A stretch of DNA of 64,000 nucleotides from Clostridia bacterium. Its GTDB lineage: Bacteria > Bacillota > Clostridia > Oscillospirales > CAG-272. Shown here in pieces: positions 52,523-59,906 of the stretch; the stretch's first letter is position 1; each line of letters starts with the position of its first letter. The notes below the pieces were generated by a model. The model saw only the letters and a list, made by a program, of their open reading frames with translations. It was not told the DNA's origin and made no database searches. The position numbers and the translations under genes were made by a program. The stretch lies in contig JAFSSQ010000089.1 of the NCBI GenBank assembly GCA_017450965.1, forward strand, positions 40,103 through 104,102, in the 5' to 3' direction.

Positions 52523-52544
52523 CGCCCCGGATAAAAAGAAAGGA

Positions 52545-52586
52545 GCCCTCGCCGCCGGCGGCCGGCGGCGGGGGCTTTCTTTGTTT
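52545..52586 (+). terminator. intrinsic terminator after gtrA
   Basis: GC-rich stem GCCCTCGCCGCCGG / CCGGCGGCGGGGGC (1 mismatch) followed by TTTCTTTGTTT. Confidence 0.65.
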
Positions 52587-52675: not shown

Positions 52676-52704
52676 TTGAAATCATCGCTTCCGTCGTATA
52701 TAAT
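52676..52704 (+). promoter_or_regulatory. sigma-A type promoter of the two-component operon
   Basis: TTGAAA, 17-nt spacer, TATAAT. Confidence 0.65.
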
Positions 52705-52757: not shown

Positions 52758-54017
52758 GTGACGTTTACCGTTCGCGTCCTGACCTCGGTCGCATCCCCGC
52801 TCTTGCTTCTGATCGGGCTTTCTTATACCATTCTGACGGATACGTATATCCGGAGATTTCATAAGCGGATTATGTTTCTCGTGATCGCGCTGGTCGTAAC
52901 GATGATCGCAAGCGACGTTCTCGACTATTACTTTTCCCACGTCCGTCCGCTTCCGATCGGCCGGCGCCTCAACAGTACCTACGGCTACGGCATGCTGCCG
53001 GTCCTGATCGTTTTATCCTATTATCTGGTCGGAGACCGCAGGAAGTTTCTGCCGGCGTGGTGCCTGGCGGGCGTCAACGCGGCGGTCTATTTCGTTTCGC
53101 TCTTTACGGGGATCGCGTTTTCGATCGGACCCAATAAAGCCTTCAAGCGGGGGCCGCTCGGCTATACCTGCCATATCATCTCCGCCCTTTTGCTGATCAA
53201 CTTTCTGATCCTGACGCTCCGCGAATACGCGCGGCGCAAAAAGGTGTTTTCCGTTATCCCGGTCTTTTGCGCGGCGATCGTCGCGGGCGCCGTGCTGCTC
53301 GATATGTTTATGCCGGGGAACGACCAGCTGCTCGTTTCCTGTCTGACGATCGCAACCGTGATCTGCTGCATCATGTTTTATTCCTGGTTCCATCTCCAGT
53401 TCGTCAACGTGTACCAGGAAAACGTGATGGCGGAGCAGCGGATCAAGATCATGGTCTCCCAGATACAGCCGCACTTCCTTTTCAACACGATCGCCACCTT
53501 CCGGGCGCTCTGCCGGCGCGATCCCGAGAAGGCGGCGACGGTGGCGGAAAAGTTCGGGCAGTATCTGCGCCAGAATCTGGACTCTCTCAATACGCCGGAT
53601 CTGATCCCGATCCGGCGCGAGCTTGACCACACGCGGATCTACGCCGATATCGAGATGGTCCGCTTTGAAAACGTGCGCGTCGAATACGAGATCGAAGACG
53701 CGGCGTTCTCCCTGCCCGCGCTGACGATCCAGCCGATCGTGGAAAACGCGATCCGCCACGGCGTGCGCGGCAAAAAAGAGGGGCGCGTTCTCGTCAGCAC
53801 CCGATTCTCCGGCGGGCGCCACGTCATAACCGTTTGGGATAACGGGGTCGGCTTCGATCCCGCCAAAGCGGCCAAACCAAGCGAAAGCCATATCGGGATT
53901 GCCAACGTCCGCGAGCGGATCGAAAAGCTCTGCGGCGGGACGATGACGATCGAGAGCGTGTTAAACGGGGGGACGACGGTTACCATCTCCATCCCCGAAA
54001 CGGAGGAAAAGGGATGA
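52758..54017 (+). CDS. sensor histidine kinase, LytS/YehU-type (PF06580 His_kinase + HATPase_c), polytopic N-terminus
   Basis: 5-6 TM N-half, QIQPHFLFNT H-box, ENAIRHG (N-box), DNGVGF, GIGIANVRERI. The GTG start is uncertain. Confidence 0.85.
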   Translation: MTFTVRVLTSVASPLLLLIGLSYTILTDTYIRRFHKRIMFLVIALVVTMIASDVLDYYFSHVRPLPIGRRLNSTYGYGMLPVLIVLSYYLVGDRRKFLPAWCLAGVNAAVYFVSLFTGIAFSIGPNKAFKRGPLGYTCHIISALLLINFLILTLREYARRKKVFSVIPVFCAAIVAGAVLLDMFMPGNDQLLVSCLTIATVICCIMFYSWFHLQFVNVYQENVMAEQRIKIMVSQIQPHFLFNTIATFRALCRRDPEKAATVAEKFGQYLRQNLDSLNTPDLIPIRRELDHTRIYADIEMVRFENVRVEYEIEDAAFSLPALTIQPIVENAIRHGVRGKKEGRVLVSTRFSGGRHVITVWDNGVGFDPAKAAKPSESHIGIANVRERIEKLCGGTMTIESVLNGGTTVTISIPETEEKG

Positions 54018-54811
54018 GGATCGTTTGTGTCGACGACGAGCGGCTCCTTTTGGACGAGCTGACGGCGATGTGTATGGAGCTGCCCGGGGTCGAGGAGGCG
54101 AAGGGCTTTCTCTCCCCAGCGGAAGCGCTCGCCTGGCTGAAAGACCATCGCGCCGATCTCGCCCTGTTGGATATCGATATGCCGGAAATGAACGGTCTGG
54201 AGCTTGCCGCCGGGATCAAGGCGGACTCTCCCGATACCGCCGTCATCTTTATCACCGGCTATTCCGAGTACGCGCTGGACGCCTTTTCGGTGCGGGCGTC
54301 GGGATATCTGCTCAAGCCCGTTACCAAAGAGGCGCTGGCCTCCAATATCGCGTACGTGTTTTCCGACCGGCGCCCTCCCGTCCCCGAACGGAAGGTAAGC
54401 GTGACGACCTTCGGGACCTTCGAGGTTTACGCCGGCGGGCGGCAGGTCAAGTTCCGGATGGCAAAGTGCAAGGAGATCCTTGCGTACCTCGTCGACCGGC
54501 AGGGAGGAAGCGTGACCCGCCCGGAGCTTTCTTCCGTTTTGTGGGAGGACCGGCCGTACGACCGCAAACAGCAAAAGCAGCTGGACGTTTATATCCGCTC
54601 CCTGCGGGAGACCCTCGCCGAATACGGGATCCCGCAGATCCTTGAGATGCAGCGCGGGACCCTGCGGATCCTGCCGGAGGAGTTCGATTGCGACGTGTAC
54701 CGCTTCTTTTCCGGCGATCCGGACGCCGTAAACGCCTACCGCGGGGCGTATATGAGCGCCTACTCCTGGGCGAGCATCACCGAGGGAAAAATGTTTTGGA
54801 AGCGCGGCTGA
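54014..54811 (+). CDS. response regulator: REC domain fused to an OmpR/SARP-type winged-helix DNA-binding domain
   Basis: REC (VDDERLL, LLDIDMPEMNG, ITGYSEYA...GYLLKP), then FGTFEVYAGGRQVKFRMAKCKEILAYLV...LSSVLWEDRP...LDVYIRSLRETL...DCDVYRF (SARP-like). Overlaps the kinase stop by 4 nt. Confidence 0.8.
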   Translation: MRIVCVDDERLLLDELTAMCMELPGVEEAKGFLSPAEALAWLKDHRADLALLDIDMPEMNGLELAAGIKADSPDTAVIFITGYSEYALDAFSVRASGYLLKPVTKEALASNIAYVFSDRRPPVPERKVSVTTFGTFEVYAGGRQVKFRMAKCKEILAYLVDRQGGSVTRPELSSVLWEDRPYDRKQQKQLDVYIRSLRETLAEYGIPQILEMQRGTLRILPEEFDCDVYRFFSGDPDAVNAYRGAYMSAYSWASITEGKMFWKRG

Positions 54812-54827
54812 GAGCAGCGCGGCCCGC

Positions 54828-54875
54828 AAAAAACGCCGTTTTCTTCAAAATATAGAAGAAAACGGCGTTTTTTAT
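54828..54875 (+). terminator. strong intrinsic terminator after the two-component operon
   Basis: 19-bp perfect stem AAAAAACGCCGTTTTCTTC / GAAGAAAACGGCGTTTTTT, 8-nt loop, T-run. Confidence 0.85.
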
Positions 54876-54891
54876 TGGACATTTATTGGAC
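54871..54891 (+). promoter_or_regulatory. two direct repeats TTTATTGGAC with 11-bp phasing (candidate response-regulator binding site)
   Basis: TTTATTGGAC a TTTATTGGAC. The 3' repeat ends 9 nt before the -10 hexamer, and no -35 hexamer is recognisable at the canonical spacing. Confidence 0.55.
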
Positions 54892-54897
54892 GCCGCG

Positions 54898-54906
54898 TGC
54901 TATCAT
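54898..54906 (+). promoter_or_regulatory. extended -10 element of the giant surface-protein gene
   Basis: TGc-TATCAT has the same GTGCTAT... context as six other promoters called in this window. It lies 69 nt upstream of ATG 54975. Confidence 0.5.
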
Positions 54907-54974
54907 AAAACAAATATGGGGTGTTATATTTATTCACTTTTGATACAGCGAAAGCCGATACCAAGGAGAGAAAT

Positions 54975-57900
54975 ATGAAAAAACAATTCAAACCGTTCAG
55001 TTTTCTGACGGCGCTGATCCTGTTGATCGTTCTCGTATTGGTTCCGACGGGAACGTTTGCGGGGGCAAGCTTTGTAAAGGGCGTTTTTGCAAGCTCCGCG
55101 GGCGGAAATGCGCTGTGGGAAGGGGAAGGCACCGAGGCGGAGCCGTACCTCATCCAATCGGCGGAGGACTGGGACGCGCTCAGCGAGTATACCAACGGCG
55201 GCGGAACGGACTATGCCGGCAAGTATTTTTTGCTGACGGAGGATATTTCCGTTTCGACCATGGTCGGCTTCCGGGACCAGAGCTCGGCGGATATCCCGTT
55301 CACCGGGACCTTTGACGGCGGCGGCCATACCCTGAACGTTTCCATCCGGTATAGCGGCGCGATGGCGGCTCCGTTCGGCTCCGTTTGTAACGCCGTGATC
55401 AAAAACCTCAACGTAACGGGTACGGTAAACGGCGGCATACATTCCTCCGGCCTTGTCGGCGGCGGCAACAAAGGCGCCGTCCCGGGCAGCACGCTCGAGA
55501 TCTGCAACGTCCGGTCGAGCGTGGCGGTCAACGGCTACAACAACTCGGCCGTTTCGCACCTCGGCGGTATCGTGGGCCATTCGCTCAGCGCCCGGATCAC
55601 GATGGACAACGTCGTCTTCGCCGGCAGTCTCAACGGCAGCATGGCGCAGGGCGGTTTTGTCGGCTGGGGCGGCGGCGCCGGCGATCACCTTTCGATCTGC
55701 GTGTTCAGCAACTGCCTGTTCGCCGGAACGGTCAAATCCGGCAATACCTTCCACCCGGTCGGTTACGCCTACGGCAACAACGGCAGGGCAACGCTGACCA
55801 ATTTCTACACCACCAAAGACAAAAACAACACCTCCAACGCGTTTGATTACCAGGGCACCTCTTACACCGTGCTGAGCGGGCTTGCCGCGAAGGTGACGGA
55901 CGGCGGCGCGATCCGGTACTATGATAACTTCGCTTCCGCGGCGAGCGCTCAAAACTGGAAGCAGGGAAGCACCCTGACGCTGCTTGGCGACGTTTCGATC
56001 TCAAGCACCCTGAACGTACCCGCGGGCGAGTATACGCTTGACTTGAACGGTTACGGCATACGCAGGACCGGCAGCGGCTGTGTGATCAGAGTGAACGAAC
56101 AGTCGACGCTGAATCTCAAAGACAGCAACCCTTCGGTCGAACACAGGTATTCGGTCTCCAATCCCGCCGCGAACGGCGCGGGCGTTGCGACTGTCAACGA
56201 TGCGCTGACAAGCGGCTATCAGACCTTTACCGGCGGCTATATTACCGGCGGCTATATTACCGGCGGGTATAATTACGGCGCGGGCATCAACGTGGAAGGA
56301 AACGGCGCCGCTCTCAATATGTACGGCGGAACGATCATCGGCAACCGTCTTACGGCGGGATCTACCGGCGGCGGCGGCGTTTGTCTGCAGGATTGGACCG
56401 GAACCGGCGGCTTCCATATGTACGGCGGTTCGATCATCGGCAACACCTCCAATTACGGCGGCGGCGTTTACGTCAGATGCGGTACGATGGTCATGGTTGA
56501 CGGCGAGATCAGCCGTAACGTTGCGAACAACAATATCGGCGGCGGACTGCTCGCATTCGGCGCATCTTCCGCCTTTATCATGGAAGGCGGCGTGATCAAC
56601 GGAAACTATGCGCAGCACGGCGGCGCGATCGAAGCGTCCGGCGGGGCTGCCGTCTCGATCTCGGGCGGCGTTATAACCAACAATACCGCGTCCGGTAAGG
56701 GCGGCGCGTTGACAAACCAGAGAACGGACGGAGATACCAGCCCCGCCGTATTCAACATCTCCGGCGCGCCCGTCTTTTCGGGGAACACCGCCGGCGGACA
56801 GTCAAGTGACGCTTATTTGTGCAATACCGCGGTACTGAACGTGACCGGCGAGCTGACGAACACAACGCCTTTCCTTGTGAAGAGATCAAGCGGTACCGGC
56901 GCGTTCACCTCCGGCTGGAACGACAAGATGGGAGACGCCGATCCGTCCGACTACTTCAAAAGCGAAAACGGCAGTTATCAGGTTTTCCTGAATCCCACCG
57001 GCGAAGCGGAGATCGGCACGCCTCCCGTGGCATGTATCATCAGCGGAGAAACCGCGGCGTATTACACCTCGATTTCCGCCGCGGCGAGCAGTACGAACTG
57101 GACGGCGGGCAGCACGCTGAAACTGCTCGACGACGTTACCGCAACCGCCGTGATCACCGCGCCCTCCGGCGCGCATACCCTCGACCTCAACGGGCATACG
57201 ATCACGAGGACCGGCGCTACCGGCGCAGATAATTCCGGTCTTGTAATCACGGTGAACGACGGGGCAAACCTGACGGTCACCGGCCCCGGCAAGATCACCG
57301 GCGGCAGCGGTTTCCACGGCGGCGGTATTCACGTTGAAGGGACCGGCTCCCTTGTCCTTGATCACTGCGAGATCAGCGGAAACACCGGACATTACGGCGG
57401 CGGTCTGTATCTGAAAGGCGGCACCATAACCCTGAAAAACGGGACGGTCGTCAAGGATAATTTGGGCACGGACGGTTATGGCGGCCCCGGTATTTATGCG
57501 GAGAGCGGCGGAACGCTGATCCTGGAAGACTGTACGTTTACCGGGAACAGAATGAACAGCGGTATGCAATGCGCAGTATTCCTCTGCGGAAACGCCAAAG
57601 TTCAGGTGAGCGGAGCTCCCGTGATCTATGACAATACATACAACGGCGAGCAAAAGAATCTGCTTTTTTTCCAGGCGAACGACCAGCAGAGCAGGGTCTT
57701 AGTCACGGGTACGCTGACCGACGGCGCGAAAATCGGCGTCAGACAGACGAACGACAATTTCGGTGCTTTCTCGATCGGCTGGAAGGATAAAATGGGCGAC
57801 GCCGATCCTGCCGAGTATTTTATCAGCGACAACAGCGGTTACATCGTCTGTGTAACTGCAGAAGGAGAAGCATTGCTCCGCTATCCCGACGTACCCAGCG

Positions 57901-59906
57901 TCAGCGCGTCCGGCGTGACGTGCGACTACGACGGAAAGGGCCACGCGATCTCCGTTACCGCGCCAGACGGCGCAACGGTGACGTACGGTACGCAGGAGGG
58001 CGACTTCTCGCTGACGTCGAGCCCGGCCTTTACCGATGCCGGCGTCCATACCGTCTACTATCAGGTATCCAAAACCAATTATACCCCCGTGACCGGCTCC
58101 GCCACGGTAAAGATCGATCCGATCAGCGCGACGGTCACGATCACCGGTCATACCGAAACGGCTGACTACGACGGCAAGGAACATTCGGCTGCCGGCTACG
58201 ACGCCGAGACGAGCGCCGCCCTGTTTGACGTGACGAAGGACTTTTCCTTCAGCGGCGCGGCGGAAGCGAAGCGGACAGACGCGGGCAAGACCGAGATGGG
58301 TCTGGCGCCGGAGCAGTTCGCGAGTGTCAACGCAAACTTCGCCGAGGTGACCTTCGTCGTCACCGACGGATCCGTTACCGTTCTGACCGTCGACGCGGCG
58401 ATCACGGCCGCGCCCCGGACGGGCAGCCCGATCTATAACGGCTCCGAACTGCCGCTTCTGATCGCCGGTACGGCGGAAGGCGGGACCTTCTCCTACGCTC
58501 TGGGCGCCGACGCGCAGAACGCGCCGGACGCGGCAAGCTACCAAACGGCGATCCCGACCGCAAAGGATCTCGGACGCTACTTCGTCTGGTACCGCGTGGA
58601 CGCTGATCATAACCACAACGGTCTCCCGCCCGTCTGCCTGCAGGTCGTTCTGGCGGAAGAGGGCTGGAAGACGCTGAACGGTACGCTTTATCAAAGCGAC
58701 GGCGTCACGCCGGTTGCCGGCGCCGCCGTGACCCTCACGCAGGGCGATCGGACGGTGGACGCCGCCAGGACCGACGCGGCGGGCGGCTATCAGTTCATCG
58801 TTCCGGCCGGCGTCTACAACGTCGTCGCCTCGAACGGCGCAAGCACCGAAACGACCCTTGTAAAGATCTACGAGGATCAGGACCGGACGCTTACCTTCTC
58901 CGCCGGGAGCGCGATAGCCGAGCTCAAGGTCAACGCCGACGGGGACAAACACTTCGGCGTGACGGTCGACGGACTGACAGACGAAGCGCTCGCCGTCCGC
59001 GCGGCGGCAGAGGCGGCGGACAAGACCGTTTCCGTTCTGATGACCGTGGAAGCAAAGACGGAAGAGACGGCGCAGAACGCCGCTCTGATCAACGCGCTGG
59101 CCGGAGAGAGCCAGAACCTCATCTTCTTCGATACCAAAGTCGAAAAAACGGTGGATTCCGTTACGACCGTCCTTCAAACGACCTCGAACGTCCTGGAGCT
59201 TGCCGTTCCTTACGATAAGACGGGCAAGCGCGGCGTGACCGTCTACGCTTCCGACGGAAGCGGCGTGCAGACGCTGCGGGAAAGCGACGGCGGGGAAGAA
59301 GGAACCTTCCGCATCGACAAGGAAAACGGACTGATCTACGTTTATTCCAACCGCTTCTCGACCTTTGCGATCGGCTATACCCCCTATTACCGGGTGGAAA
59401 GTACCGCGTCGCTCGGCTCCTTTGCGGGAACGGCGAACGTGGTGATCCGCAGCGCGGACGGCTCGCAGGTCTTCGAGCTGCAGAACGTCGCGCCGGACCG
59501 TATCAGCTTTGACGATATCCCGAAAGGGAAGTACACCATGACGATCACCTGGGAAGACGGCGCGGAGAACACCCTGACCGTGCCGCTGACGATCCGGGGT
59601 AAGGCCGCGGCGTCCGCCGATACGGCAAACGCCGGCGCCGAAGCGCTTGCGGCGGCGAAGGAAAACGGCGCGGTCCTTGCGGCTCTCCGCCGCAGCGACG
59701 CGGACCGCCGCTCCGGGATCCTCACTCTTGCCGCCGTTCTCACGGCGGACCGGGCGGGCAGCCCGGACGCCGGCGCCGCCGGCAGCGGCGTTTCCGCTTT
59801 CAGCGTTTCTCCCTTTGGGACCCTTGTCGGCCCGATCCCGCAGGCGGATCCGGGCGCGGCCCTTCTCCGGCTGCAAAAGTTAAAGCGCGTGGCGATGAGG
59901 ATTTAA
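54975..59906 (+). CDS. giant secreted surface protein (1643 aa): GLUG-motif region, two beta-helix (PbH1/Pmp-like) modules, Ig-like/MBG-like domains, CarboxypepD_reg-like domain
   Basis: Signal peptide MKKQFKPFSFLTALILLIVLVLVPTGTFA. GLUG-type motifs: SGLVGGG, LGGIVGHS, GGFVGWGGG. Gly-rich beta-helix rungs: GGGVY, GGAIEASGG, GGGIHVEG, GGGLYLKGG. Also YDGKGH...YTPVTGSATVKIDP and AGGYQFIVPAGVYNVVASNG. No LPXTG or TM at the C-terminus. Confidence 0.8.
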   Translation: MKKQFKPFSFLTALILLIVLVLVPTGTFAGASFVKGVFASSAGGNALWEGEGTEAEPYLIQSAEDWDALSEYTNGGGTDYAGKYFLLTEDISVSTMVGFRDQSSADIPFTGTFDGGGHTLNVSIRYSGAMAAPFGSVCNAVIKNLNVTGTVNGGIHSSGLVGGGNKGAVPGSTLEICNVRSSVAVNGYNNSAVSHLGGIVGHSLSARITMDNVVFAGSLNGSMAQGGFVGWGGGAGDHLSICVFSNCLFAGTVKSGNTFHPVGYAYGNNGRATLTNFYTTKDKNNTSNAFDYQGTSYTVLSGLAAKVTDGGAIRYYDNFASAASAQNWKQGSTLTLLGDVSISSTLNVPAGEYTLDLNGYGIRRTGSGCVIRVNEQSTLNLKDSNPSVEHRYSVSNPAANGAGVATVNDALTSGYQTFTGGYITGGYITGGYNYGAGINVEGNGAALNMYGGTIIGNRLTAGSTGGGGVCLQDWTGTGGFHMYGGSIIGNTSNYGGGVYVRCGTMVMVDGEISRNVANNNIGGGLLAFGASSAFIMEGGVINGNYAQHGGAIEASGGAAVSISGGVITNNTASGKGGALTNQRTDGDTSPAVFNISGAPVFSGNTAGGQSSDAYLCNTAVLNVTGELTNTTPFLVKRSSGTGAFTSGWNDKMGDADPSDYFKSENGSYQVFLNPTGEAEIGTPPVACIISGETAAYYTSISAAASSTNWTAGSTLKLLDDVTATAVITAPSGAHTLDLNGHTITRTGATGADNSGLVITVNDGANLTVTGPGKITGGSGFHGGGIHVEGTGSLVLDHCEISGNTGHYGGGLYLKGGTITLKNGTVVKDNLGTDGYGGPGIYAESGGTLILEDCTFTGNRMNSGMQCAVFLCGNAKVQVSGAPVIYDNTYNGEQKNLLFFQANDQQSRVLVTGTLTDGAKIGVRQTNDNFGAFSIGWKDKMGDADPAEYFISDNSGYIVCVTAEGEALLRYPDVPSVSASGVTCDYDGKGHAISVTAPDGATVTYGTQEGDFSLTSSPAFTDAGVHTVYYQVSKTNYTPVTGSATVKIDPISATVTITGHTETADYDGKEHSAAGYDAETSAALFDVTKDFSFSGAAEAKRTDAGKTEMGLAPEQFASVNANFAEVTFVVTDGSVTVLTVDAAITAAPRTGSPIYNGSELPLLIAGTAEGGTFSYALGADAQNAPDAASYQTAIPTAKDLGRYFVWYRVDADHNHNGLPPVCLQVVLAEEGWKTLNGTLYQSDGVTPVAGAAVTLTQGDRTVDAARTDAAGGYQFIVPAGVYNVVASNGASTETTLVKIYEDQDRTLTFSAGSAIAELKVNADGDKHFGVTVDGLTDEALAVRAAAEAADKTVSVLMTVEAKTEETAQNAALINALAGESQNLIFFDTKVEKTVDSVTTVLQTTSNVLELAVPYDKTGKRGVTVYASDGSGVQTLRESDGGEEGTFRIDKENGLIYVYSNRFSTFAIGYTPYYRVESTASLGSFAGTANVVIRSADGSQVFELQNVAPDRISFDDIPKGKYTMTITWEDGAENTLTVPLTIRGKAAASADTANAGAEALAAAKENGAVLAALRRSDADRRSGILTLAAVLTADRAGSPDAGAAGSGVSAFSVSPFGTLVGPIPQADPGAALLRLQKLKRVAMRI

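Follow-up and report, generated by a model that had tools for sequence, protein, structure and literature searches.

We analysed a 64,000-nt stretch (the window) of contig JAFSSQ010000089.1 (positions 40,103 to 104,102, forward strand) from the Clostridia bacterium assembly GCA_017450965.1, and focus here on a 22-bp pair of direct repeats, referred to as the box, that lies between a two-component operon and the gene for a giant secreted protein of 1643 aa. The operon encodes a sensor histidine kinase and a response regulator, the start of the regulator gene overlapping the kinase stop by 4 nt. The features from the box to the start of the giant gene are as follows.

54871..54881, forward strand: distal 11-bp repeat, TTTATTGGACA, covering about -42 to -32 if counted from the inferred start; conserved in orthologues
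54882..54892, forward strand: proximal 11-bp repeat, TTTATTGGACg, at about -31 to -21; conserved in orthologues
54893..54900, forward strand: 8-bp spacer between the box and the -10, CCGCGTGC, holding the TG (54898-99) of the extended -10
54901..54906, forward strand: -10 hexamer, TATCAT, unchanged in the closest relative that carries the locus (G002)
54912..54914, forward strand: candidate transcription start near 54913, about 7 nt past the -10, placed from promoter geometry only
54963..54969, forward strand: ribosome-binding site, AAGGAGA, 5 nt ahead of the ATG at 54975

The box lies at the position of a -35 element

As an initial annotation of this DNA had described, TTTATTGGAC occurs at 54871-54880 and again at 54882-54891 with A54881 between the two copies, giving a period of 11. 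Downstream of the proximal copy the sequence reads GCCGCG, then TG, c and TATCAT; the 9-nt gap that had been reported holds for the distance from the proximal copy to the -10 hexamer, while the distance to the extended -10 (TGcTATCAT) is 6 nt. The reported absence of a -35 element at 17-nt spacing was borne out, GACATT standing there with 0/6 matches to TTGACA, and a sigma-70 scan of 54500-55300 returned no -35/-10 pairs. The sole -35-like word is TGGACA (54876-81), which lies within the distal repeat and was ruled out as a genuine -35 because its spacer is 19 nt. An alternative -10, TGtTATATT (54922-30), was also ruled out, being disrupted in G002 and off the register of the larger set of sites described below. 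The promoter has the make-up expected of an activator-dependent promoter without a -35, namely a recognisable -10, no -35 at 16-18 nt and a predicted activator site over the -35 position. From this arrangement and the comparisons that follow, we consider it likely that 54871-54892 is a 22-bp operator of two head-to-tail 11-bp units, to which the regulator encoded upstream (54014-54811) would bind to activate the giant gene.

TGGACA matches TTGACA at five of six positions, and the repeats could on this account be read by another transcription factor, or by an alternative sigma factor that uses TTGGAC as a -35-like element. We hold this to be very improbable, since at 19 and 8 nt from the -10 the TGGACA words match no sigma spacing, and the tandem 11-bp repeat indicates a head-to-tail dimer.

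Weight of the repeat within its own genome

The genome comprises 2.07 Mb at 59.7% GC, and the double repeat is unique in it, even at 3 mismatches. The genome search for further box sites that the initial annotation had called for was run and found none, and the predicted regulon in this genome would consist of one promoter. Perfect repeats 10 nt or longer at offset 11 number 12 in the genome, compared with about 2.6 expected (1-5 in Markov simulations), and the single 10-mer shows no enrichment in the window when one mismatch is allowed. Both figures are what would be said in favour of a functionless duplication, arisen by chance or by slippage beside the T-tract of a terminator. A single exact repeat alone is weak evidence, and its significance comes from conservation: the box is invariant in orthologues whose flanks cannot be aligned, and the genomes of at least 119 species have it, with a -10 at a fixed distance downstream. 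The comparative data effectively refute an origin by chance or slippage, to which we give next to no credence. A lone extra TTTATTGGAC (contig C73) lies in AT-rich sequence downstream of a ribosome-binding site and ATG and, judged by eye, is apparently coding; we dismissed it as chance-like.

Other exact 11-bp-phased repeats were seen at C42:8643, C58:477, C86:24279, C31:10391 and C45:10596. Such repeats comprise GTTCACAAAAA twice, GTTCATTTTTC twice followed by GTGCATTTTT, TTTTTGTTCGA twice, and AACTGAAAAAA twice at two loci. Some of them may be operators of other winged-helix regulators.

Conservation of the box in orthologous loci

In G002, whose regulator is 97% identical, both repeats and the -10 are retained. 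The two genomes differ in the terminator loop, at 54892, where the 11th base of the proximal repeat is A in G002 in place of the G found here, and within or beyond 54925-30. Metagenomes contain many homologues of the regulator at 60-77% identity, six of which, at 62-70% identity, could be placed on contigs. All six loci have the order kinase, regulator and giant secreted protein (1257-3565 aa), with a 210-aa acetyltransferase gene between the box and the giant gene in one (L030). In each of the six, a hairpin terminator fused to TTTnTTGGAC-A-TTTnTTGGAC follows directly past the regulator stop, with 1 mismatch in L029. In four the box is followed after 9 nt by a TAnnnT hexamer, mostly with TGn in front, and in the other two (L024 and L028) the most plausible -10 stands 6 nt past the box or its position is ambiguous. 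The terminator, spacer and 5' untranslated region (5'UTR) are otherwise unalignable in sequence among the orthologous loci, and on these comparisons the box is a classical phylogenetic footprint. Loci of the organism's own clade have mosaic homologues of the giant protein downstream of the box.

One of the metagenomic loci has a second box upstream of its kinase gene (L026:2495-2560), consisting of TATTGGAC-A-TTTATTGGAC, then 9 nt and TAGGAT, and preceded by a degenerate third phased copy, TATATTGG. This arrangement suggests autoregulation in L026; the corresponding position in the genome studied here holds a plain sigma-70 promoter. Elsewhere, two loci (L042 and L115) have 3-4 perfect phased copies, and divergent pairs of boxes lie 90-360 bp apart, one pair about 1.4 kb apart (L049, L054, L082, L097, L101 and L144). 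In L028, L029 and L031 the cassette adjoins a gene for TnpV, DUF6809 or a type IV secretion system (T4SS) coupling protein (T4SS-DNA_transf/TraG), which hints that the kinase-regulator-giant cassette may be carried on conjugative or mobile elements in several metagenomic orthologues. At the locus studied here the GC content (57-64%) equals the genome average, so that composition lends no support to recent horizontal transfer.

Register of box and -10 across species

A blind, pattern-only search of 400 genomes of the same family, allowing up to 2 mismatches, gave five matches besides this genome and G002, and a reversed-pattern control gave three. The only one of the five with intact TTGGAC cores, in G358, reads TTTGTTGGAC-A-TTTGTTGGAC followed by 9 nt and TATAGT, and it lies between a PF06580 kinase gene and an operon whose products are a DUF3592-like membrane protein and a regulator that shares 53% identity with the one studied here. 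The other four (G201, G239, G270 and G092, with 2 mismatches each, the changes being symmetric in two of these matches) were put down to chance, as the regulator is absent from these genomes and the contexts are not promoter-like.

An exact scan with TTTNTTGGACATTTNTTGGAC over one genome per prokaryotic species returned at least 119 loci, compared with about 4 expected by chance on our own estimate. About 105 of the loci listed belong to rumen or gut Clostridia, that is Lachnospiraceae (including cultured Butyrivibrio strains), Ruminococcaceae and Oscillospiraceae, and 14 matches in other phyla among those listed appear to be due to chance or to iteron arrays. Cultured strains with the G variant of the box include Butyrivibrio sp. 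LC3010 and WCD3002 and Lachnospiraceae bacterium XBB2008, C6A11 and LC2019. Position statistics were drawn from 125 distinct sites among the matches listed, at positions outside the search pattern. Position 22 is A in 81% of these sites, and the repeat unit is therefore an 11-mer. T occurs at position 28 in 59% and G at position 29 in 53%, both together in 54 of the 112 Clostridia sites, and positions 31-36 follow TATAAT (T 88%, A 85%, T 62%, A 66%, A 62%, T 86%). A TAnnnT hexamer at the exact 9-nt gap is present in 98 of the 112 Clostridia sites versus 0/14 of the others. Behind 92 of the Clostridia sites listed, an open reading frame (ORF) of at least 90 aa in the same orientation, with a Shine-Dalgarno sequence, begins within 250 nt, usually 45-120 nt downstream. 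As judged from these alignments, the box is a promoter element held in rigid register with the -10.

This register bears on the main rival explanation, namely repression by occlusion, in which the box would bind the neighbouring regulator as a repressor and a self-sufficient extended -10 promoter would be occluded between -42 and -21. The TG at -15/-14, present here and in about half of the sites listed, and -10 hexamers that are near consensus would suit such a promoter. Some OmpR-type regulators of Clostridia act negatively, which counts for repression; an example is CD1688 of C. difficile (PMC9380558), a regulator of no demonstrated kinship to the one studied here. We nevertheless judge repression unlikely, as the rigid single-base register between box and -10 in 98 of 112 sites would be expected for contacts with RNA polymerase and not for simple occlusion. 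Further, the box often stands ahead of the regulator's own gene, which suits positive feedback, and a -35 is lacking throughout, whereas the constitutive-looking promoter of this organism has one. The latter promoter, that of the kinase-regulator operon, shows that the organism uses -35 elements and makes the absence of a -35 ahead of the giant gene meaningful.

Two further kinds of match were noted in the scan. Four loci (L033, L053, L070 and L134, with Nitrososphaera, Parcubacteria and Prevotellaceae records among them) hold TTGGACA-like/tgtccaa-like iteron arrays with no -10, which are unrelated. In L055, L057, L078 and L128, from Acetatifactor and Roseburia metagenome-assembled genomes, TTTGTTGGAC occurs twice inside a conserved non-coding element of about 150 nt (…tgttggacttcgagatgaaaa…TTTGTTGGACATTTGTTGGACttttggtatctttgttgtacc…). 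These four have no TAnnnT at the 9-nt gap, and an ORF lies 388 nt downstream in L128, with none nearby in the others; the box may serve another purpose in these loci, or belong to a mobile element.

Co-occurrence of the box with one regulator subfamily

Among the 119 loci listed, 42 have a homologue of the regulator or kinase within the 8-kb locus. Response_reg is the commonest Pfam family among the first genes downstream of the 92 sites listed (12 cases); 5 more are DUF3592 genes, and in the loci checked the gene after DUF3592 is that of the regulator. The 77 loci listed that lack a regulator gene within 8 kb would fit a reader other than this regulator, a reading contradicted at the level of whole genomes, where co-occurrence of the box with the regulator subfamily is nearly perfect. 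Of 25 box-bearing Clostridia genomes without a regulator at the locus, all but one (24) have a homologue at another place, with an identity of at least 47% in 23, and none of 10 non-Clostridia genomes with a box match encodes one. Likewise, in a set of 60 relatives, a regulator of at least 47% identity occurs in G002 only, and G002 has the box, which no other searched relative does.

The box and the regulator also vary together. Position 4 of the repeat is A or T with regulators at least 60% identical to the one studied here and G with those at 49-60%, with two exceptions, and the two copies nearly always share the same base there (GG 99, AA 8 and mixed 5 among the Clostridia sites listed). 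The recognition helix, QKQLDV-IR-LR, is invariant, as is the TTGGAC core, and the two groups of regulators are separated by Y193 versus I/V and by K185 versus S. At 4 of 10 loci of distant paralogues (33-44% identity; L005, L006, L012 and L013), different 11-bp-phased boxes stand just past the regulator gene (TGTGGCAC, TTTGTAACG and TTTACACG), with TAnnnT 6-10 nt further on; examples of the repeat pairs are TTTGTGGCAC/TCTGTGGCAC, TTTGTCACGCA/TTTGTAACGCG and TTTGTAACACT/TTTGTAACGCG. That these paralogues have boxes of their own again speaks against an unrelated reader. On this comparison, the phased-box architecture appears to be family-wide and its cores subfamily-specific.

The two-component system and its predicted target

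The genes flanking the promoter, and the promoter of the two-component operon, are as follows.

52676..52704, forward strand: promoter of the kinase-regulator operon, TTGAAA-17-TATAAT, near-consensus sigma-70 with 11/12 matches; no repeat box
52758..54017, forward strand: sensor histidine kinase, 419 aa, with Pfam PF06580 His_kinase (E = 3e-19) and HATPase_c
54014..54811, forward strand: response regulator, 265 aa, with a receiver, a SARP-like winged helix and a three-helix stub
54975..59906, forward strand: secreted giant protein, 1643 aa, the predicted target, with an N-terminal signal peptide and Gly-rich repeat modules

With about six transmembrane segments, the kinase lacks a large external domain; its H-box reads QIQPHFLFNT. 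The receiver of the regulator matches Pfam Response_reg at E = 1.8e-22; across 60 homologues D53 and T81 never vary and K101 is kept in at least 90%, so that the phospho-acceptor Asp is in place. The OmpR-type winged helix that the initial annotation had assigned to the regulator was recovered with Pfam Trans_reg_C at 32.6-34 bits, above the cut-off of 26.2. A model of the full-length regulator, with a mean predicted local distance difference test score (pLDDT) of 89, gave fold matches in the OmpR/PhoB family (PrrA, DrrB, DrrD and PhoP). When the C-terminal 140 residues were modelled alone (pLDDT 92.4; predicted template-modelling score 0.87), the best Foldseek match was AfsR in its transcription activation complex (8hvr, E = 1e-6; also 8k60), and EmbR (2fez, 2ff4) matched over about 160 columns with a template-modelling (TM) score of 0.80 and a root-mean-square deviation of 2.7-2.9 Å. 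The effector domains of PhoB, ArlR and PrrA matched over about 85 columns only (TM about 0.5, E at least 4e-3). Three helices past the wing (residues 227-264) account for the extra match and align structurally with the first part of the bacterial transcriptional activation (BTA) domain in EmbR and AfsR; beyond the winged helix about 45 residues form a helical stub, and PhoB-type domains cover about 85 of the 140 residues. Pfam BTAD was not detected in the regulator even at E up to 5, and a complete BTA domain is absent. In a sequence-only search of the PDB with the C-terminal domain, ArlR, PhoB and EmbR were all weak matches, so the separation of SARP from PhoB comes from the fold search alone.

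The receiver domain (54014-54370) has its best NCBIfam matches among BtsR and LytR models, not OmpR/PhoB-type ones, and no NCBIfam equivalog reached its cut-off with the regulator. Since the receiver is BtsR/LytR-like and the kinase is LytS-type, we infer that the regulator arose by output-domain replacement, a LytTR output domain having been swapped for a SARP-like one.

No significant Pfam or NCBIfam family was found in the giant protein. Between this genome and G002, the kinase, the regulator, the promoter and the first ~190 nt of the giant gene, encoding the signal peptide, are ~96-100% identical, and beyond that stretch the giant protein is ~53-55% identical to that of G002 over its first ~380 aa. 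In the metagenomic locus L028, with a regulator 68% identical, the N-terminal module of the giant protein is 75% identical to that of this genome. This pattern suggests that the regulated surface protein may undergo module swapping or rapid diversification behind a conserved switch.

Proposed insulation of the promoter by a terminator

54828..54873, forward strand: intrinsic terminator of the two-component operon, 19-bp stem, 8-nt loop and U-tract

The hairpin of this terminator starts 17 nt past the stop codon of the regulator gene, and the 89-nt fold of 54812-54900 has a free energy of -42.4 kcal/mol (z = -6.6). With its stable GC-containing hairpin, its U-tract and its place at a gene end, 54828-54873 has the features of a Rho-independent terminator. 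The TTT that closes its U-tract is also the opening TTT of the distal repeat, a point absent from the initial annotation. A simple terminator scan omitted 54828-54873, probably as pairing between the A-tract and the T-tract extends the stem. Comparison with G002 showed an invariant stem and a variable loop, and an analogous hairpin was read by eye in 6 of 8 other box contexts of the organism's own clade. Rfam searches of the intergenic region and 5'UTR gave no family at threshold, the matches reflecting the hairpin alone, and a riboswitch or small RNA in these regions was dismissed on this ground. We propose that this strong terminator would shield the giant-gene promoter from read-through of the kinase-regulator operon; since the terminator precedes it, the giant gene would depend on its own promoter.

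A very GC-rich hairpin terminator with a 17-bp stem (52542-52578) also follows a GtrA-like gene about 100 nt upstream of the kinase-operon promoter. As this terminator precedes that promoter, the two-component operon can be regarded as an insulated unit.

A predicted mechanism of activation

In the mechanism that we propose, the multi-pass membrane kinase would phosphorylate the regulator at D53. Each repeat would take up one regulator protomer, and the two neighbouring protomers would share a face of the DNA at about -42 to -21, in the usual place of the -35. In the manner of SARP and PhoB activators, they would recruit RNA polymerase to the extended -10, TGcTATCAT, 8 bp downstream, or position it there, and transcription starting near 54913 would yield the mRNA for the 1643-aa secreted surface protein. 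Binding, its dependence on phosphorylation, activation over repression and the start site are the steps that we infer. Our comparisons support the reading of the initial annotation that the two-component regulator may activate the giant gene via the repeats.

Several points weigh against this mechanism. An extended -10 can function without a -35 in Firmicutes, so that the promoter might be self-sufficient, and in AfsR the BTA domain supplies contacts with RNA polymerase, while the regulator studied here is without a full BTA. The uniqueness of the site leaves no in-genome regulon as support, and conservation in G002 says little, as G002 is about 96% identical across the whole region. The co-variation at position 4 is confounded with phylogeny and is suggestive.

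Relation to known systems

Target promoters of SARPs (Streptomyces antibiotic regulatory proteins) carry direct repeats of 11-bp (or 22-bp) periodicity with the 3' repeat 8 bp from the -10, and the 22-bp afs box overlaps the -35 (PMC10936776). The geometry that the initial annotation had likened to that of SARPs agrees with this published rule (PMC10936776), since two units of 11 bp place the end of the box 8 bp from the -10. The proposed system thus resembles SARPs (AfsR with its afs box, ActII-ORF4, DnrI, RedD and EmbR of M. tuberculosis) in its 22-bp box, 11-bp repeats and overlap with the -35, and in a DNA-binding domain whose model superposes best on AfsR and EmbR, including the three helices beyond the wing. 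This match of geometry and fold to SARP activators is a further argument against a repressor. The differences are that SARPs are stand-alone or under Ser/Thr kinases, whereas this regulator has an N-terminal receiver and a histidine kinase partner; that the BTA domain is cut to about three helices, with no NOD or TPR domains; and that the hosts are Clostridia, not Actinobacteria, with surface proteins and other functions as targets, not antibiotic clusters. The SARP core is also a TCGAG-type heptamer, compared with TTGGACA here. SARPs activate transcription through contacts with RNA polymerase and with sigma region 4.

With PhoB the system shares a two-component regulator composed of a receiver and a winged helix. 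In the pho box, direct repeats set in tandem at a spacing of one helical turn stand in for the -35, immediately ahead of the -10. Unlike PhoB, the regulator has a helical stub after the wing, and it is paired with a PF06580 (LytS/YesM) kinase instead of one of the HisKA type. LytS/LytTR systems (BtsS/BtsR, LytS/LytR) are similar in their PF06580 multi-pass kinase and in the receiver, which is nearest to BtsR/LytR, but have LytTR as output where this regulator has a SARP-like winged helix. Several homologues carry the JGI name 'two-component SAPR family response regulator', so that the architecture of receiver plus SARP is catalogued. The COG database lists this architecture. No account of an operator, regulon or mechanism for any such protein came up in literature searches on receiver-SARP regulators of Clostridia, and searches with the motif string gave eukaryotic primer matches only. 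Activation through repeats that replace the -35 is already known from PhoB and SARPs, and the regulator family of rumen and gut Clostridia is apparently uncharacterised.

Implications

With somewhat more confidence than doubt, we regard this promoter as one instance of a large non-actinobacterial SARP-type family, characterised by two-component control, a BTA stub and LytS-type kinases. One subfamily would keep a near-invariant (TTTGTTGGACA)x2 8 bp from the -10 in at least 100 species (with Oscillospiraceae, Ruminococcaceae and Lachnospiraceae in the record titles), as a portable switch ahead of giant surface proteins, type IV secretion genes, STAS signalling modules and glycosidases, sometimes beside mobile-element genes, and sister subfamilies would use TGTGGCAC and TTTGTAACG in the same register.

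If this is true, the wiring of a very common regulator family of rumen and gut Clostridia, that is kinase, regulator, 22-bp operator and targets, would be readable from sequence. SARP-style replacement of the -35 would then reach from the antibiotic regulators of Actinobacteria to two-component signalling in Firmicutes, and a minimal BTA stub would suffice. The operator would be usable for regulon prediction in metagenome-assembled genomes, where it could point to giant adhesin-like proteins, type IV secretion genes and glycosidases, and it could become a compact inducible promoter part for anaerobes. In the organism studied here, the 1643-aa surface protein would be made only on stimulation of the membrane kinase.

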